From Gammaproteobacteria bacterium (lineage in GTDB: Bacteria > Pseudomonadota > Gammaproteobacteria > CAJXQU01): a stretch of DNA of 64,000 nt. Of the stretch, positions 17,132 through 35,155 are shown piece by piece. Position 1 is the stretch's first letter. Every line of letters starts with the position of its first letter. Under the pieces are notes generated by a model. The model saw nothing but the letters and a program-made list of their open reading frames with translations, searched no databases and had not been told where the DNA came from. The stretch covers positions 2,880,001-2,944,000 of the forward strand of contig CBDEGZ010000003.1 in assembly GCA_965238175.1 (NCBI GenBank), written 5' to 3'. Made by a program: the position numbers and the translations under genes.

Positions 17132-17430
17132 CGTGAAACAAACCGATTATGTTCAAAAGGCAGATATAAAGGATGACGTTTTTGATCAGATCTAGTTAAA
17201 TGCAAGCATCTTTTATAACAACTAGATAAGGTTGCATCATGGGAAAGAAGGCTTGGACAGTACGAAAGAACTAACAAGACTACACTTTGAAAGCGTCTAT
17301 AGATAACAAGCTGTATTAGAAGAACATTAGTGTCGTACATAATTCCCCACATGGTCGTTTGCTGTTTTCAAGTCTAAAATGAATTGAATAGCATAAAACA
17401 TGCCTAAGGGAGCAACAAAACTACTTAATC

Positions 17431-17495
17431 TGATGTGATGGTCTCCTCACTTACGACATCTTGGTGCCATAATTGAACTGCTATAAACACAATCA
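17431..17495 (+). mobile_element. Orphan left end of an IS1111-type element
   Basis: TGATGTGATGGTCTCCTC...GGTGCCAT..TTGAACTG...ACACAATCA closely matches the left end at 32243-32309. Confidence 0.8.
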
Positions 17496-18247
17496 CAATA
17501 GGATGTACACAGACGCGTATCTGCCATTGTGGAAGCCTGAGCTATCGCCCAAGCGACAAAACAACCCCGCCGCACCAATTTCACCGACGCCTTCAAGTGC
17601 CATCAAACGGCGACAGGGATCAGAGTGGGTAGCTTGCTGGCGGAGTAATTTATCAACGGCATTAAGTTGTCTTTCTGTCCCCAACCATTGTGTCCCAAGC
17701 AGTTCAAACAGTGTTTTGTTCACCTTGGGTAAGGCTTCATTATCAGGTACTAACAAGAGGTCTATTCCCTAGCGTAAAGATTTCTTGCCCACCCCAAGTA
17801 CAAAACCATACTCATACAACAATGCATGAAGATGATTACTCATTTGGGTCAAGGATTTGTCCAGAAGGCGTCTTGATGTCTGTAATGCTTGTAGGTTTTG
17901 TTGCTCAACCGTCATTACCCGGCAGAAAGTCATGTTCGGTTGACGAACCGCCACGGCGATACCGATGGCGTCATTGGCATCCGTTTTTTGTTTACCGATA
18001 AAGGGTTTTACTTTCTTGGGTGGCATACCACGAACAATATGGCCGTGTTTTCGTGCAATGCGTCCCCAGTAATGAAAACTACCACAGTCTTCCATGGCCA
18101 CAATACAGGGGGAGAGTTGGCCAATATTTCTTTAGCCTTGGCAGGTAAGACTGGCTTGTTGAAAAATATTTCGCCGACAGGACTGACTTTACTGATTTGA
18201 ATAACACGTTTTGCAAGATCCAGTGAAATAACATTATGCTTGATCAT
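17493..18247 (-). pseudogene. IS110-family transposase pseudogene (frameshifted, 3'-truncated)
   Basis: Split across three ORFs: ISLDLAK / MEDCG..HYWGR..KTDANDA / GVGEIGA..FHNGR; ends before the SSGGK motif; left-end-like GATGTATGGACACC near 18305. Confidence 0.88.
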
Positions 18248-29250: not shown

Positions 29251-30780
29251 CTACTCTTGTTCTACTTTGGGCCGCATATGAGGGAAAAGTAATACATCCC
29301 GGATCGAAGGTGAATCAGTTAAGAACATAACCAATCGATCAATCCCGATCCCTTCCCCAGCTGTTGGTGGTAAACCATGTTCTAGTGCACGAATGTAGTC
29401 TGCATCAAAATGCATTGCTTCATCATCACCAGCTTCCATTTCTTCCACTTGCTTTTTGAACCGTTCGGCTTGATCTTCCGCGTCATTTAATTCGGAAAAA
29501 CCATTTGCAATCTCACGGCCACCAATAAAAAATTCAAATCGATCAGTGACAAAAGGATCGTCATCATTCCGACGTGCTAGTGGTGAAACTTCTGTAGGAT
29601 AAGCAGTAATAAAGGTAGGCTGATCAAGATTAGCCTCAACTGTTTTCTCGAATATTTCGATCTGTACTTTTCCTAACCCATAACTATCTTTAATCGGAAT
29701 ACCCAGGTTTTCAGCGATCCGTCTCGCCAATTCCAGCTCCTCAAGTTGTTCCATATTGAGATCAGAGTTGAAAGCCAAGATTGATTCTTTAACAGTCATA
29801 CGTTGGAAAGGCTGAGCCAAATCATACTCTTTTCCTTCGGTGTTCACTGTTGTTGATCCCAATACATCTTTCGCCAGGCAGCGCAGCATATCCTCTGTCA
29901 GATCCATCAAATCGCGGTAATCAGAATATGCTTGATACCACTCTAGCATAGTGAATTCTGGATTATGTCGGGTTGATAAACCCTCATTTCTGAAATTACG
30001 ATTGATCTCGAAGACTTTTTCAAATCCACCAACCACTAAACGCTTTAAATACAACTCTGGTGCAATTCTCAAATAAAGCTGCATATCTAAAGCATTATGA
30101 TGCGTCGTAAAAGGCCGAGCCGTGGCACCACCAGGAATGACTTGCATCATCGGCGTCTCCACTTCCATAAAGTCTTTTGCCATCAAGTAGCGACGAATGT
30201 AATCAATAATTGCAGATCGTTTTTTAAATGTTTCGCGCGCTTCCTCGTTCATAATCAAATCAAGATAACGTTGGCGATAACGCGTTTCTTGATCCGTCAG
30301 ACCATGAAATTTTTCCGGTAAAGGATGTAATGCCTTGGTAAGAATATGAATATCATCGAGCATAACCGACAACTCGCCCTTATTGGTTTTGAACATCACG
30401 CCTTCAGCACCAAGAATGTCGCCAATATCCCAACGTTTGAATTCGGCATATCGACCTTCCGGCAAATCATCACGTTTGACGTACAATTGGATCTGACCCG
30501 ACATATCTTGAAGATGTGCAAAAGAGGCTTTTCCCATCACTCGTCGCGTCATCATACGTCCCGCAACTTTTACCCTGACTGGGTTCTCGGCAAGTTCATC
30601 TTTGGAAAGCTCTTCGTAACGCGCGATCAATTCTGCTGATAAGGAATCGCGACGAAAATCATTTCGGAACGGATTACCGTTTTCACGTAATTCGGCCAAC
30701 TTTGCTCGGCGCTGGGCGATCTGATCGCTATCATCAATTTCATTGTTCGCTTCGTTATTGTTTTCTTTATTGTCGCTCAT
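29251..30780 (-). CDS. lysS: Lysine--tRNA ligase
   Basis: [36 protein letters not shown]. Confidence 0.97.
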
Positions 30781-30801: not shown

Positions 30802-31900
30802 CTAAAGTCCGCTCTTGAGGCTTGCTTCGATAAATTTATCCAGATCACCATCAAGTACGGCTTGAGTATTGCCCGTTTCTACACCGGTTCGCAGATCTTT
30901 AATTCTTGATTGATCAAGAACATAAGATCGTATTTGACTGCCCCAACCAATGTCCGATTTACCTTCTTCTAACACTTGCTGATCGGCATTACGCTTTTGG
31001 ATCTCCAATTCATATAACCGAGATTTGAGTTGCTTCATGGCATTCGCACGATTCTTATGTTGCGATCGATCATTTTGACATTGGACTACAATACCCGTTG
31101 GCTCATGAGTAAGTCTAATCGCAGAATCGGTTTTATTGACGTGCTGTCCACCGGCACCACTGGCACGATATGTATCTACTCGTAAATCGGCAGGGTTAAT
31201 CTCGATCTCAATTTCATCATCAATTTCGGGAGATACAAAAACCGACGCAAATGAAGTATGACGGCGGTTACCCGAATCAAAAGGTGATTTACGTACCAAT
31301 CGATGCACACCCGTTTCAGTCCTTAACCAACCAAACGCATATTCACCTTGGTAACGGATCGTTGCGCTTTTGATCCCCGCAACATCACCTGGTGAAACTT
31401 CCATCAGTTCTGTTTTAAAGCCATGACGTTCACCCCAACGCAGAAACATTCGCAACAACATTTCAGCCCAATCCTGCGCTTCAGTCCCACCTGATCCAGA
31501 CTGGATATCCAAAAAGGCACTGCACTCATCCGTCTCGCCAGAAAACATCCGACGAAACTCCAATTCTGCCAATCCTTTTTCTATTTGTTCAAGATCTTGA
31601 ACAACTTCGTTGACGGTATCTTCGTCATTCTCTTCTTTAGCAATTTCGAGAAATTCCGCTCCATCACTGAGGCCGTTATCCAGCGTCTTTACAGTCTCAA
31701 CAATTTTTTCTAAAGAAGCTCTTTCCTTACCTAACGCTTGTGCCTGAGCCGGGTCGTCCCAAACCGTCGGCTCTTCTAATTCACGCTCAACTTCTGTAAG
31801 TTTTTCACACTTAAGATCGTAGTCAAAGATACCCCCTGAGCGCATCAACACGCTCTTGCATCCCTTTGATGCGGGCAAATAGACTATTTAGTTCTATCAT
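30802..31900 (-). CDS. prfB: Peptide chain release factor 2, programmed +1 frameshift
   Basis: ATG at 31900 ([25 protein letters not shown]), then AGGGGG-TAT-CTT-TGA-C; SPF and GGQ motifs downstream. Confidence 0.96.
31822..31837 (-). promoter_or_regulatory. prfB autoregulatory frameshift site
   Basis: Internal SD AGGGGG plus CTT TGA C at codons 25-26. Confidence 0.93.
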
Positions 31901-32327
31901 CACCGTTGTTCCGTGGCTGAAAAGCGTCGGATCCTACTATAAATGGATAAAGAAAACGATTTATAGATTTGCTGAGATAGCGCCTACATCATTTAGAATC
32001 GACATAGATTGACGAAAAACATTTTTAAACGTTTTTTGAGAGCAGCTATCAACTACATTTTTAAAGAACGATGCATTTTAGAAAAATATGCACAACAAGA
32101 TTTTAAAATTGCCTTTGGTGCTAAATATTTCAATAGCCTGTTTGTTATTAGATGATTTTTTAGTCAAGGTTGGAAGAAAAGAATGCTAGCCAATTATATA
32201 TATTGAAAACTTTTCTGAAAAAATCTGAATTATTTACTAACCTGATGTGATGGTCTCCTCCCCCTAACGGCATCTAGGTGCCATGATTGAACTGACATAC
32301 ACACAATCAAAAGAGGAGAAGACCAAA

Positions 32328-33341
32328 ATGAAGACTACAACAATCGGGTTAGACATAGCAAAAAACGTATTTCATGCTGTCTGCTGTAATCAACAAGGGC
32401 GTATAATCAAAAAGAAAATGTTAAAGCGAGCGCAGGTACTCTCCTTTTTTCAATCTCAACCTCCTTGTTTAGTCGCAATAGAATCTTGTGCAACGTCACA
32501 GTATTGGGCCCGAGCGATACAACAACAGGGACATCAGGTGAAATTACTACCACCTCAGCATGTTAACGCATTTCTAATCGGCAATAAGAATGATTATAAC
32601 GATGCCTTGGCCATCGCCGTTGCTGCGAAACAACCTCATTTAAAAAGTGTGGGCATTAAATCAGTTGAGCAACAAGACAACCAGGCACAACATAAAGCAA
32701 GAGACTTAGCGGTCAGACAAAGAACCGCATTATGTAACCAAATGAGAGCGCTTGTTGCAGAATATGGCATTAGCCTTCGTCCCGGCCTAAATACCCTACG
32801 TCAATCTATCCCGTTGCTATTAAGTGATGAGAACGAACGGTTGTCCGTTACTTTCAAAAGGATACTGCGCCAGCTAAAGGAACAATGGCAATCACTTGAT
32901 GCCTGTATTGCGACATTTGACCAATTGATCATTCAATCGGCAAAAAACAATGCGATTTGCCAACGCTTACAAACTATTCCAGGGTTTGGGCCGATGGTCT
33001 CGAGCGCGTATTTTAATGAAGTGGGAAACGGCGCTCATTATCACAAAGGGCGCGATGTGTCCGCCTCATTAGGACTTGTTCCACGACAGTACAGTAGTGG
33101 TGGTAAAGAGGTGCTACTGGGGATCAGTAAACGCGGCAATAAATACCTTCGTTGTTTGTTAATTCTAGGCGCGAAGGCCGTGGTATCAAGAGCCAAAACG
33201 AAAGGCGATAAACTGAGTCAATGGATTAATCGTTTAGTTGAGACGCGGGGGCATAATCGAGCGTGTGTGGCGTATGCCAACAAAATGGCAAGAATGGCCT
33301 GGGCTATAACGGTTTCTGGTGATGACTACTCACCGGCCTAA
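32328..33341 (+). CDS. IS110-family DEDD transposase/recombinase
   Basis: GLDIAK, IESC, KNDYNDA, GLVPRQYSSGGK; GAGGAG RBS favours the ATG at 32328 over 32283. Confidence 0.94.
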   Translation: MKTTTIGLDIAKNVFHAVCCNQQGRIIKKKMLKRAQVLSFFQSQPPCLVAIESCATSQYWARAIQQQGHQVKLLPPQHVNAFLIGNKNDYNDALAIAVAAKQPHLKSVGIKSVEQQDNQAQHKARDLAVRQRTALCNQMRALVAEYGISLRPGLNTLRQSIPLLLSDENERLSVTFKRILRQLKEQWQSLDACIATFDQLIIQSAKNNAICQRLQTIPGFGPMVSSAYFNEVGNGAHYHKGRDVSASLGLVPRQYSSGGKEVLLGISKRGNKYLRCLLILGAKAVVSRAKTKGDKLSQWINRLVETRGHNRACVAYANKMARMAWAITVSGDDYSPA

Positions 33342-33570
33342 ATAGAGAGAACAAATCATTTCAACGAATTGCGAAGGTAAAACTAAAGATGGCATAACAG
33401 GTCAAACCAGCCTATTGAAAACCTGTCGAGCTCAGGGGTAACTAATACCGATAACCTGATAAGGAAAATAGGCGCGTAATACATCCAGGTCAGAAGTTGA
33501 AAACTTCATTGAAGGCCGTATATATGACAGCAATCCTGTCCCTGTTATCTGAATGTTTTATCTTGCAATA
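33342..33570 (+). ncRNA. Putative bridge/seek RNA of the IS1111-type element (boundaries approximate)
   Basis: Stems ATAACAGG/CCTGTTAT and GCCTATT/AATAGGC; loops contain TAACCTGA (target flank plus core) and ATATGA / ACATC (donor junction). Confidence 0.7.
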
Positions 33571-33587
33571 CGGGAGGAGACCATATA

Positions 33588-33794
33588 TGAACCCAGGATA
33601 AGAATATCCCATAAAAACATTAATAAAAACAATTAGTTATATGAAAAAATGGTGATTGTTTTGCCTTGTGGACTTCTTTTAGCGACTATGTAAGGCAGAG
33701 TTGCGTAGCAATAGTGGGCTATTGGAAACAACTCCAACGCACAGAGGCACTAAAAGAAATTTGCTGAAGGGGTATTTCCTATCCGAGTTCAGGT
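33588..33794. repeat. MITE/ERIC-like palindromic element; first bases stranded at 32240-32242 by the IS
   Basis: Terminal IRs ACC|TGAACCCAGGATAAGAA and TTCCTATCCGAGTTCAGGT; nested internal palindromes; TTACTA direct repeat at 32234-32239 and 33795-33800. Confidence 0.7.
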
Positions 33795-33801
33795 TTACTA
33801 G

Positions 33802-33834
33802 CAAAAAAGCCGAAGATGAACTTCGGCTTTTTTG
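33802..33834. terminator. Bidirectional intrinsic terminator
   Basis: CAAAAAAGCCGAAG-ATGAA-CTTCGGCTTTTTTG. Confidence 0.88.
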
Positions 33835-33876
33835 TAAACCTAAATAAAAAAGCTTATGCTAATTATGACCTTCACA

Positions 33877-34530
33877 TCACTTTTTAGCGAATTTTCTACG
33901 ACCTACCATCCCTAAGAGTCCTAAGCCCATTAATGCTAACGTGCCTGGTTCAGATACGCTCGCTGGTTCCGGTAGCGGTTGAAACGGATACGGTTCTACT
34001 ACTAGTCTGTCTACATTGGTTCTAACATTACCCTTATCAATTTGATCTATCCTTTGACCGTTGCTGTGGACATTATGCCAAATACCCAGTTTATCTCCGA
34101 AACCAACGCTATACTTTTTGTCAAAATTAGTATGATCAAGTCTCAATGAAAAACCACCTTCTCCAATATTGATAATATTATCAAAAGACGCGATTTCTGT
34201 TCCGCCATTCCAATAATCTCTAACACTAACTTTGTTATTTACTAAATCTAAGTTGTATGAAAAGTACTGCTTGGCTCTATTTGGCGAACCGCCACTAGTT
34301 AACGTGAATTGGGCTTTGTCCACTTTTCCAGCATTATTATTAAAACTAGAAAATAGACTAAGTACATTGTTGTAGGTATTCCAAGATGTGGAAAAACTTT
34401 CTATTGGACGATTTTTTAATTTGTCGGAATAACTATAATGATAAACATTAAACGCTTGTGCTGAAAATGCGATGGTTGATGCTATGGTTAAAATAATGGT
34501 AGGAACTAATTTTCTAGCTGTGAATTTCAT
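33877..34530 (-). CDS. PEP-CTERM sorting domain surface protein
   Basis: ATG at 34530 with AGGAGA RBS; signal peptide ending AQA; C-terminus LPEPASVSEPGTLALMGLGLLGMVGRRKFAKK. Confidence 0.88.
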   Translation of the reverse strand: MKFTARKLVPTIILTIASTIAFSAQAFNVYHYSYSDKLKNRPIESFSTSWNTYNNVLSLFSSFNNNAGKVDKAQFTLTSGGSPNRAKQYFSYNLDLVNNKVSVRDYWNGGTEIASFDNIINIGEGGFSLRLDHTNFDKKYSVGFGDKLGIWHNVHSNGQRIDQIDKGNVRTNVDRLVVEPYPFQPLPEPASVSEPGTLALMGLGLLGMVGRRKFAKK

Positions 34531-35155
34531 GCTGTATCTCCTTATAAGTAAAAATTGATAATCCTTTATCAATGAACGTGCTAGTTCAATAACCAATTAC
34601 AATGGCTTTCAGGAGTGTGTACTTGATAAAAGTAAATAGCAAGGTTATTTAGCTTATAATTAGAGCAAGAGTATTTTAAATCCCCTCTCTAATCTCGATC
34701 AGTAACTTTTCATTCCTCAATGCTATTTACATTTTCGTTTCATGCTTGCATTACTTGTTGTATTTTTCCTTAATAAATTGAGCGTTAGTCGAAGAAAGGT
34801 ACGCACGATTGCCTCGCCATATTCTAACCTCAGATCTGCATAAGGATCCGTTCTTCATTCCAAGAGATGTTGATACTGGGTTTCTTAGGTTGAAAGGTAT
34901 ATACCCGTGGCACCTGGAAATGCAGGTTTCAGTGGCTCTGTCGTTCTTGCTGGCAAGGCGTGCTTCGCCGGAAAGGGGGCTTGTTAATTGCTTGGCCCTT
35001 TCCAAGAAACACAACGATGCCCAGCGAGAATGATAGAGTCACCCAAAAGGCACGGGTATATGCGATCAACCCGCAAGCAGATGTACCATAAAACTTACAG
35101 TGGGACATTACTCAATAATACTAAGAACTTCTGGTCTAGAGCCTTACAAATTCAG

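Follow-up and report, generated by a model that had tools for sequence, protein, structure and literature searches.

Bridge RNAs, also called seekRNAs, have been known since 2024. Siddiquee et al. proved the guide principle for four insertion sequences (IS) of the IS1111 group, which belongs to the IS110 family (PMC11187229), and for 93.0% of the catalogued IS1111 elements Durrant et al. placed a predicted RNA of this kind in the right end (PMC11208160). In the descriptions given by these authors, the group has a short left end, a long right end, and subterminal inverted repeats (PMC11187229, PMC11208160). These repeats are 7-17 bp long with short extensions, the transposase has 330-350 aa, and it carries the motif GL-P----S(T)G (PMC11187229). 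The IS1111-type seekRNAs described there have the segment complementary to the top strand 5' of the one complementary to the bottom strand, and the two matches overlap (PMC11187229). Here, we describe an element of this group in a stretch of 64,000 nucleotides (the window) from contig CBDEGZ010000003.1 of a gammaproteobacterial genome (GCA_965238175.1). Judged from its sequence, 32243-33589 is an active-looking IS1111-group copy, and its right end (33342-33587) very probably encodes a bridge (seek) RNA on the + strand. This is the best explanation for the anatomy, the copy number, the conserved structure, the covariation of guides with flanks, and the gradient of site occupancy that are given below. 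The mechanism is not new; what is new is the member, with its lineage, its target, and its natural guide/target pairs. The element or a near relative may already stand in the supplementary tables of Durrant et al. or Siddiquee et al. No ISfinder name was obtained for it.

Core TGs at 32243-32244 and 33588-33589 bound the element, which measures 1345 bp, or 1347 bp with both cores counted. Its non-coding ends are 83 nt on the left and 246 nt on the right. The subterminal inverted repeats that were found by a repeat search are 13 nt long and 100% complementary, and they are followed outward by terminal extensions of 5 nt (ATGTG) on the left and 3 nt (ATA) on the right. The left junction reads TAACC-TG-ATGTG (32238-32249) and the right junction CCATATA-TG-AACCCA (33582-33595). 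The transposase matches PF01548 DEDD_Tnp_IS110 (DEDD, RuvC-like, N-terminal; E 3.6e-16, 59.8 bits, cut-off 29), PF02371 Transposase_20 (C-terminal domain; E 6.4e-20, 71.8 bits, cut-off 21.3), and the NCBIfam model NF033542, 'IS110 family RNA-guided transposase' (302.9 bits, cut-off 140). Its translation contains GLVPRQYSSG, an instance of the GL-P----S(T)G motif. A weak alignment (E 2.3e-4) to the solved IS621 and ISCro4 recombinases covers the C-terminal 120 residues and includes the GL.P....SG serine motif. Homologues align from residue 1 of the product that starts at 32328, and an in-frame upstream ATG at 32283 would give an alternative product of 352 aa. The domains, subterminal repeats, end lengths, protein length, motif, and site-specific insertion are all those of the IS1111 group.

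The genome that holds the window is 3.35 Mb in 3 contigs. It contains 24 complete, near-identical copies of the element and one copy cut at a contig end. Only two positions vary among the 24 (32966 and 33513 in window coordinates), and the transposase frame is open in every copy. As far as sequence can tell, this near-identity points to a very recent burst. There are 31 matches to the left end in the genome, of which six lie beyond the IS copies and are solo fragments or remnants. TAACC precedes 24 of the 25 IS-copy left ends and AAACC precedes one, and the flanks diverge further out. The original prediction had proposed that other insertion sites should have flanks like TAACCTGA, and these left ends agree with it. 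Empty sites contain a single TG, and TAACCTGA runs straight into the right-flank sequence; several of them read TAACCTGAACTCGGGATAAG and one reads TAACCTGAGCTCGGGG. After the TG, the right flanks of 24 sites are AACTCGG (8), AACTGTA (3), AATTCGG (3), AGATCGG (2), and eight others found once each, one of which is the AACCCAG of the window copy. Because of the empty sites and the differing flanks, TAACC can be assigned to target DNA outside the element, and insertion turns the one TG of the target into two, one on either side of the element. Insertion is thus site-specific and without target duplication beyond the shared core.

The nature of the target can be read from the same flanks. A common right flank, AACTCGGGATAAGAAATACCCATCCAGCAGACTTCTTTTAGCGCC..., is found in the genome both with and without the element, and the right flanks of other copies and of empty sites have TGAACTCGGGATAAGAA... 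in common. About 200 bp downstream in the window, at 33776-33797, the end of this flank recurs as an inverted and diverged copy, TTCCTATCCGAGTTCAGGTTTA. The element therefore sits in one terminal inverted repeat of a short repeat that resembles a miniature inverted-repeat transposable element (MITE). This MITE-like repeat is about 215 bp long in the window, and its left terminal repeat is split by the IS while 33776-33797 is the right one. A preference for repeats and transposon ends is known for IS1111-type elements. One of them reportedly uses a single position in the terminal inverted repeat of a Tn21-type transposon, whereas here a short non-autonomous repeat serves as the host element.

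The right end of the element was compared with those of 80 related transposase loci (49-78% identity), which came from a scan with one genome per species. An nhmmer profile made from the 9 aligned right ends of the window and eight close relatives found a homologous region in 79 of the 80. A larger alignment holds 69 distinct sequences, 68 of the 80 loci among them, with exact duplicates, N-containing, and truncated matches excluded; the structural counts below refer to it. The scaffold is conserved in this alignment, and two short stretches of loop 1 are hypervariable. The 246-nt right end has two stem-enclosed internal loops, the first binding the target and the second the donor in the interpretation given here (Table 1). 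RNAalifold recovered the stems that close the loops and one hairpin within each loop, with compensatory changes in 23 of 35 pairs. In a fuller structure of 54 pairs, 89.2% of the cells are paired, against 81.5% in column shuffles. Changes on both sides were found in 33 of the 54 pairs, against 20.6 expected, and none of 500 shuffles reached any of five measures. When the 3' partners were slid by 1-3 columns, pairing fell to 33-40%. The covariance alignment that had been proposed as a check is thus in favor of a conserved secondary structure with two internal loops. G.U pairs are frequent, with GU in 64 of 69 sequences at one pair. Read from the other strand, such pairs would turn into C.A, and a transcript of the + strand is the only fit.

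Most of the structure had been drawn correctly in the original prediction. GCCTATT (33410-33416) and AATAGGC (33467-33473), GAGCTCA (33428-33434), GGTA (33437-33440) and TACC (33446-33449), TAACCTGA (33452-33459), ACATC (33481-33485), and TATATATGA (33519-33527) all lie where it had placed them. Its outer stem is not supported by covariation and was retained only as an alternative for the window sequence itself. The two strands, ATAACAGG (33394-33401) and CCTGTTAT (33541-33548), are perfectly complementary, but this register is not the conserved one (74.1% paired vs 73.8% in shuffles) and was equaled by 186 of 500 shuffles. The conserved stems are 33397-33401/33535-33539, which is 96.2% paired with compensatory changes, and 33388-33394/33543-33549, which is 90.5% paired. 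In these basal stems one pair is changed on both sides in 8 sequences. An additional helix, 33368-33378/33560-33569, is 84.9% paired. Both basal registers can form in the window sequence, and the 167-nt minimum-energy fold uses the outer stem that was first drawn.

The target loop carries two arms, a top-strand guide (RTG) and a bottom-strand guide (LTG). Together they encode the 13-mer TAACC-TG-AGCTCG, in which positions are counted outward from the core into the left (LT) and right (RT) halves of the target. Flanks were read in 65 rows (the window and 64 loci) where both ends could be located by means of the subterminal repeats. The other 15 of the 80 loci were dropped, 6 for gaps in an arm or the right end (mostly cut at a contig end), 4 for a right-end tail without an exact match, and 5 without a left end. 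Five more rows with short flanks were dropped, which left 60 rows with 53 distinct guide pairs, or 52 where 9 nt of right flank were needed. The left guide matches the left flank at a mean of 4.81 of 7 positions, against 1.91 ± 0.16 when permuted (maximum 2.55). For the right flank and the reverse complement of the 5' arm, the mean is 5.17 of 7, and permuted pairs give 2.18 ± 0.17 (maximum 2.81; 2000 permutations in each case). For example, the relative L031 is inserted at CCAGATC-TG-AGGTTAA and its arms are ATAACCTCA (reverse complement TGAGGTTAT) and GACGATCTGA. The site of L040 is CGATTT-TG-GGGACTT and its arms are AAGTCCCCA and GAGATTTTGA. The guide arms of loop 1 thus track the true flanks of each element, as had been predicted.

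The positions that are read can be defined from the 52 relatives with longer flanks. Identity of guide and flank is.87,.90,.88,.83,.71, and.67 from RT+1 to RT+6 and.79,.83,.92,.92, and 1.0 from LT-5 to LT-1; permuted pairs give about.3. Identity drops to background at the seventh positions, and the read positions are 5 + 2 + 6. The extra 3' base of the RTG pairs with LT-1 in 41 of 52 relatives, where 15.5 are expected and none of 5000 permutations reaches that number. The two target pairings overlap at the core TG. The core is a YG dinucleotide in which the G is invariant, and the T or C agrees among both target arms, the left-donor guide (LDG), and the right junction. The A after the core is kept in the guide and in the left end and is not constant in the targets of the relatives. 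A three-base core, TGA, had been proposed and was rejected: in L035 and L036 the targets have TG and then G while the left end retains A. Of the programmed target TAACC-TGA-GYTC that went with it, the left half TAACC stands, and the right half is to be replaced by AGCTCG with six read positions.

Pairing beyond these positions was also looked for. No signal was found between RTG+2 and LT-2, between the right-donor guide (RDG) at +1 or +2 and LT-1 or LT-2, or between LDG+2 and RT+2, as more than half of the permutations reach the observed values. Identity of LDG+1 and RT+1 is weakly positive (29 of 52 vs 19.8 expected; reached by 10 of 5000 permutations), and a handshake-like contact after strand exchange is possible. 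In the window, LDG+1 is A (33527), and all 24 sites begin with A. Chance matches were estimated from 20,000 first-order Markov sequences with the composition of the 230-nt non-coding stretch that separates the stop codon from the right subterminal repeat. All four matches together occurred in 0 of the 20,000. Individually, the left-target 7-mer was found in 1.6%, the right-end 7-mer in 4.1%, the reverse complement of the core and commonest right target (≤1 mismatch) in 5.4%, and the reverse complement of the left-end 7-mer (≤1 mismatch) in 30%.

The choice of sites within this genome follows the guide. With one mismatch to the 13-mer, 9 sites are occupied and 3 are empty; the numbers are 8 and 50 with two mismatches, 5 and 533 with three, and 1 and 4203 with four. 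One occupied site has five mismatches, a class in which empty sites were uncounted, and the only site without a mismatch is empty. Occupancy falls from 75% to 14%, 0.9%, and 0.02% for one to four mismatches, and this gradient matches what guide-directed insertion predicts. Sites with two mismatches or fewer hold 17 of the 24 copies. The site of the window copy, TAACCTGAACCCA, has three mismatches, so that it is among the poorer matches and is not typical. Tolerance on the right-hand side had been suggested from this one site, and the genome bears it out, as will be seen at RT+2. Preference in this genome is for the terminal inverted repeats of the MITE-like repeat (TAACCTGAACTCGGGATAAG...), and RT+2 is where they depart from the programmed site. 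Another abundant repeat, aaactTAACCTGAcagtcgg / aaactTAACCTGAcagtcggttactg, ends in aaaagtttgtgaattaaactTAACCTGAcagtcggttactgataattgggtaactgtc and has about 60 copies, of which one is occupied (C3:589237). Repeats with this ending (e.g., C3:5308, 11573, and 129461) have the left half-site of the IS target and its core, and the right half is poor.

The donor loop can be compared with the ends of the element. At 33520-33526 (ATATATG; 7 of 7), the loop repeats the seven bases with which the element ends when its core is counted, and 33480-33485 can form five Watson-Crick pairs and one G.U pair with the core G and the left-end ATGTG. The donor arms are therefore complementary to the joined ends; this match is weaker evidence than that of the target loop, the ends being near-invariant. 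Position 4 of the left end (T or A) is the sole variable one, and it forms a Watson-Crick pair with its RDG partner in 48 of 51 relatives. In L057 both the left end (...ATGTAAT) and the RDG (ATTACATCA) are altered, and nine contiguous pairs result. The core Y of the LDG follows the right-junction core of the element in the relatives. The stem and hairpin of the donor loop have compensatory changes in 8 of 9 pairs. Because of the donor-loop covariation, the double change in L057, and the compensatory stems, the whole region is read as a bridge RNA with two loops. The family matches, the agreement of the loop arms with target and donor ends, and the covariation all support the earlier proposal of an IS110/IS1111 element with a guide RNA located after its transposase.

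Several observations weigh against this two-loop guide RNA. Folding of the single sequence gives only a slight gain over shuffles (z -2.68 at 249 nt, z -1.5 at 167 nt), so the evidence for structure is covariation and not folding energy. In the minimum-energy form, a small CCUG/CAGG hairpin hides part of the top-strand guide. A scan of 33342-33590 against Rfam 15 gave no family at E ≤ 1. In a promoter scan, no sigma-70-like promoter was found on the + strand of the integrated element, with counts within shuffle expectation, and none of the public runs holding the element (three runs, one study) is on record as RNA. Within the genome, the sole perfect 13-mer site (C3:393936) is empty, and an IS copy lies 22 bp away in a poorer site. 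That site lies in the inverted partner of the same palindromic repeat; it has three mismatches, and 3 of 7 post-core bases match the guide. At RT+2 the guide calls for G, and 19 of the 24 occupied sites carry A instead (an rC:dA mismatch). Several occupied sites have long right flanks in common, as copies of the same repeats, and the 24 insertions may not all be independent events. In the donor loop, 33486 of the RDG is a C opposite the first core base T, and an A stands opposite an A further in. Across the family, the LDG and the right-end terminus hardly vary, and the core Y alone shows covariation.

The points on the donor loop would suit an RNA in which the target loop alone guides. It would be a short seekRNA of about 65-95 nt (roughly 33405-33478), the protein would read the ends through the 13-bp repeats, and loop 2 would be incidental or a scaffold. 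The predominant RNA that co-purifies with three IS1111-type transposases is 82-96 nt long and has both target matches, as Siddiquee et al. describe it (PMC11187229). The subterminal repeats are strongly conserved, and an RDG-like match has the chance rate of 30% given above. But a loop without a role at the ends does not account for the left-end position that covaries with the RDG, for the LDG core base that tracks the core of the element, or for the coordinated changes in L057. The compensatory changes in loop 2 indicate that it is conserved as RNA structure, and donor loops were reported for IS1111 members by Durrant et al. (PMC11208160). A target loop acting alone is therefore considered unlikely, and the bridge RNA with two loops is preferred.

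A mechanism can be proposed for the preferred bridge RNA, in which we infer that the RNA is transcribed, processed, and bound by the protein, and infer the circle intermediate and the chemistry as well. The element would excise as a circle, by analogy with IS621, ISEc11, ISPa11, and ISKpn4. Its joined ends would make a promoter with a -35 box TTGCAA, a spacer of 17 nt, and a -10 box TATGAT. The hexamer found 17 nt after TTGCAA is TATGAA when the element is integrated and TATGAT when the right end joins the left end (33563-33591, 32245-32246), and CTTGC is invariant in the 69 sequences. This junction promoter, of the classic kind, would drive the transposase gene and the RNA downstream of it. 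The RNA may be made solely from circles or by read-through; Siddiquee et al. report that no other promoter was seen in ISEc11 (PMC11187229). The predicted RNA would have about 160-220 nt, roughly from 33359 or 33388 to 33550 or 33577, and its basal stems would carry the two internal loops. By the same analogy, the predominant mature species could be a shorter target-loop RNA, as for ISEc11, ISPa11, and ISKpn4. The DEDD/Ser recombinase would bind the RNA, the 3' arm (33452-33458) would pair with the bottom strand (the complement of TAACC-TG), and the ribonucleoprotein would recombine the circle junction with the 13-bp target at the core. It is plausible from the sequences, with open frames in all copies and two single-nucleotide differences among 24, that the guide and recombinase form a complete and naturally programmed pair, as was first suggested. 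In contigs from the three public runs, the repeat had collapsed over window 32000-33800 to a contig of about 1353 nt that covers 32238-33590 and has many loose-end flanks. Neither a circle junction nor an empty-site joint was found in these collapsed contigs.

The right end could also act as DNA, through sites for transposase binding or recombination enhancement, with the similarity to the target as mimicry at the DNA level. The putative -35 box and the subterminal repeat in this region are both DNA-acting. But the compensatory pairs and the many G.U pairs are the signature of a transcribed + strand RNA, and there are separate arms for each target strand inside internal loops, as in the experimentally shown guide RNAs of relatives. 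A role as DNA alone is thus highly improbable. It is hardly credible that the region is instead a 3' untranslated region (UTR) element of the transposase mRNA (a terminator, stabilizer, or translational regulator) with no guide role, since, although the structure directly follows the stop codon and a terminator-like hairpin is flagged at 33526-33540, the two terminator-like matches are within the shuffle expectation of 1.4 ± 1.3 and a UTR element does not need two hypervariable arms that track the flanks of each element.

Table 1. Features of the IS1111-group element, its predicted guide RNA, and its target in window coordinates.
Feature	Position	Strand	Basis or remark
Left target half (LT) TAACC	32238..32242	+	Host/MITE DNA, outside the IS; same 5-mer before 24/25 IS-copy left ends
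Core dinucleotide TG, left copy	32243..32244	+	Found at both junctions; TG or CG in relatives
Left end: extension ATGTG (32245-32249) and subterminal inverted repeat ATGGTCTCCTCCC (32250-32262)	32245..32262	+	Repeat search
Transposase/recombinase gene, 337 aa from ATG 32328	32328..33341	+	PF01548, PF02371, NF033542
Basal stems, 5' strands (33388-33394, 33397-33401)	33388..33401	+	Partners 33543-33549, 33535-33539
Target-binding loop, closing stem GCCTATT(G)/(A)AATAGGC	33410..33473	+	8/8 pairs compensatory, 99.5% of cells paired
Target loop, inner 3-bp clamp	33422-33424/33462-33464	+	
Top-strand guide (RTG) CGAGCTCAG	33427..33435	+	Complementary to LT-1 (C), core TG, and RT+1..+6 (AGCTCG)
Target loop, central hairpin	33437-33440/33446-33449	+	5/5 pairs compensatory
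Bottom-strand guide (LTG) TAACC + TG (+A)	33452..33459	+	Identical to top strand of left target and core
Donor-binding loop, closing pairs 33474-33475/33530-33531	33474..33531	+	
Right-donor guide (RDG) TACATCC	33480..33486	+	Complementary to core G and left-end ATGTG
Donor loop, inner stem	33488-33491/33514-33517	+	100% paired, 3/4 pairs compensatory
Donor loop, hairpin	33493-33497/33503-33507	+	5/5 pairs compensatory
Left-donor guide (LDG) ATATA + TG (+A)	33520..33527	+	Identical to right-end terminus and core
TTGCAA, putative -35 of junction promoter	33563..33568	+	Direct reading; function inferred
Right subterminal inverted repeat GGGAGGAGACCAT (33572-33584), extension ATA, core TG (33588-33589)	33572..33589	+	Repeat search, direct reading
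Right target half AACCCA... and remainder of MITE-like repeat	33590..33797	+	Flanks common to other copies and empty sites

The element can be compared with ISEc11, ISPa11, ISKpn4, and ISPst6 as they are described (PMC11187229, PMC11208160). It has in common with them a DEDD transposase of about 337 aa with GL-P----SG, the subterminal repeats, a long non-coding region downstream of the transposase gene, the same order of arms, an overlap at the insertion point, and targets within repeated, potentially folded host sequences. It differs in its lineage and in its target, a MITE-like terminal repeat, and it is known here from sequence alone. Among named genomes, marine Gammaproteobacteria have the nearest relatives, with 68-78% aa identity in Halioglobus, Colwellia, Shewanella, and Pseudoalteromonas; Paraglaciecola is also among the nearest of the 80 loci. 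IS110-family transposases on plasmids of Enterobacteriaceae show about 45% identity and are annotated only as 'IS110 family transposase'. As in IS621 (structures 8WT6-8WT9), there are two internal loops with two guides each for opposite strands, and these overlap at the core dinucleotide. Of the two core bases, the second does not vary here (G) and the first is looser (Y); in IS621 the T is described as nearly invariant and the C as less conserved (PMC11208158). In contrast, the RNA of IS621 is in the left end upstream of the gene, the order of its guides is reversed, its core is CT, and it has no long subterminal repeats. The protein similarity is likewise weak and is confined to the C-terminal alignment mentioned above, and the guides here are 5+2 and (1+)2+6.

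These data leave the known mechanism unchanged. They provide a clean natural example of RNA-guided transposition of the IS1111 type, with readable guides, intact and very recent copies, and about 50 relatives that have different guides, each matched by the flanks. Sets of this kind establish how a sub-lineage reads its target, here by 5 + YG + 6 positions and by one further top-strand base across the core. Natural mismatch tolerance is also on view in them, which is of use to the engineering of bridge recombinases and to the annotation of IS ends.

Two features could possibly be taken further as a natural map of specificity. RT+2 matches the guide in 90% of the relatives, in contrast to the 19 of 24 mismatched sites here. 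In 11 relatives (L077, L086, L059, L056, L088, L058, L100, L108, L094, L093, and L065), the core is CG in the guides and at the right junction and TG at the left junction. The reverse combination (left CG, right TG) was not found in any relative, and CG is present on both sides in 18. Either the first core base was kept from a TG target or CpG decay has taken place at the left junction. We put forward, tentatively and as more doubtful than not, that the rC:dA mismatches at RT+2 and the empty perfect site suggest a mismatch tolerance specific to that position, or a preference for the target context (the MITE terminal repeat), and that, if there is no CpG decay, the first core base is inherited on the left from the target and on the right from the donor. 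If the latter is true, the first core position lies outside the exchanged overlap in IS1111-type recombination. Neither the RT+2 tolerance nor the left/right asymmetry of the core is described in the literature passages on bridge RNAs and seekRNAs that were available.

Other observations concern the element, its relatives, and its surroundings. In the 5' UTR of the transposase gene (32250-32325), the ribosome-binding region GGAGAAGACC is the pairing partner of the left subterminal repeat GGUCUCCUCC (minimum free energy -22.8 kcal/mol, z -2.16), and this pairing may be a translational brake on read-through transcripts. A perfect palindrome of 76 bp at L029 1500-1575 (C3 about 1393269-1393344) consists of the initial ~38 nt of the IS left end, present twice and head to head. 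TAACC-TG stands on one side of it and CA-GGTTA on the other, and it may represent either a mini-element or a remnant of aberrant recombination. The window also holds a left-end remnant of a related IS1111-type element at 17426-17503 (84% identical over 78 nt), with TAATC-TG before it. Near this remnant, a truncated DEDD transposase fragment lies on the opposite strand (~17808-18116, -). A further, different IS110-family transposase gene is found at C3:1730241-1730693.

A hairpin that resembles a rho-independent terminator follows the right repeat of the MITE-like element at about 33807-33834. Three weak Rfam matches in 31900-33900 were rejected as chance and are all outside the RNA; they are HrrF and STnc40, both at 33699-33834, and RUF20 at 32052-32135. 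The weak HrrF and STnc40 matches can be attributed to this terminator-like hairpin. Upstream of the element are a prfB-like gene (30802-31878, -) and a lysS-like gene (29251-30780, -), which were named from their translations with no search. The prfB-like open reading frame (ORF) opens at an odd TTG, which would suit the usual programmed frameshift. Downstream, an ORF at 33877-34596 (-) has a PEP-CTERM-like C-terminus, as read from its translation.

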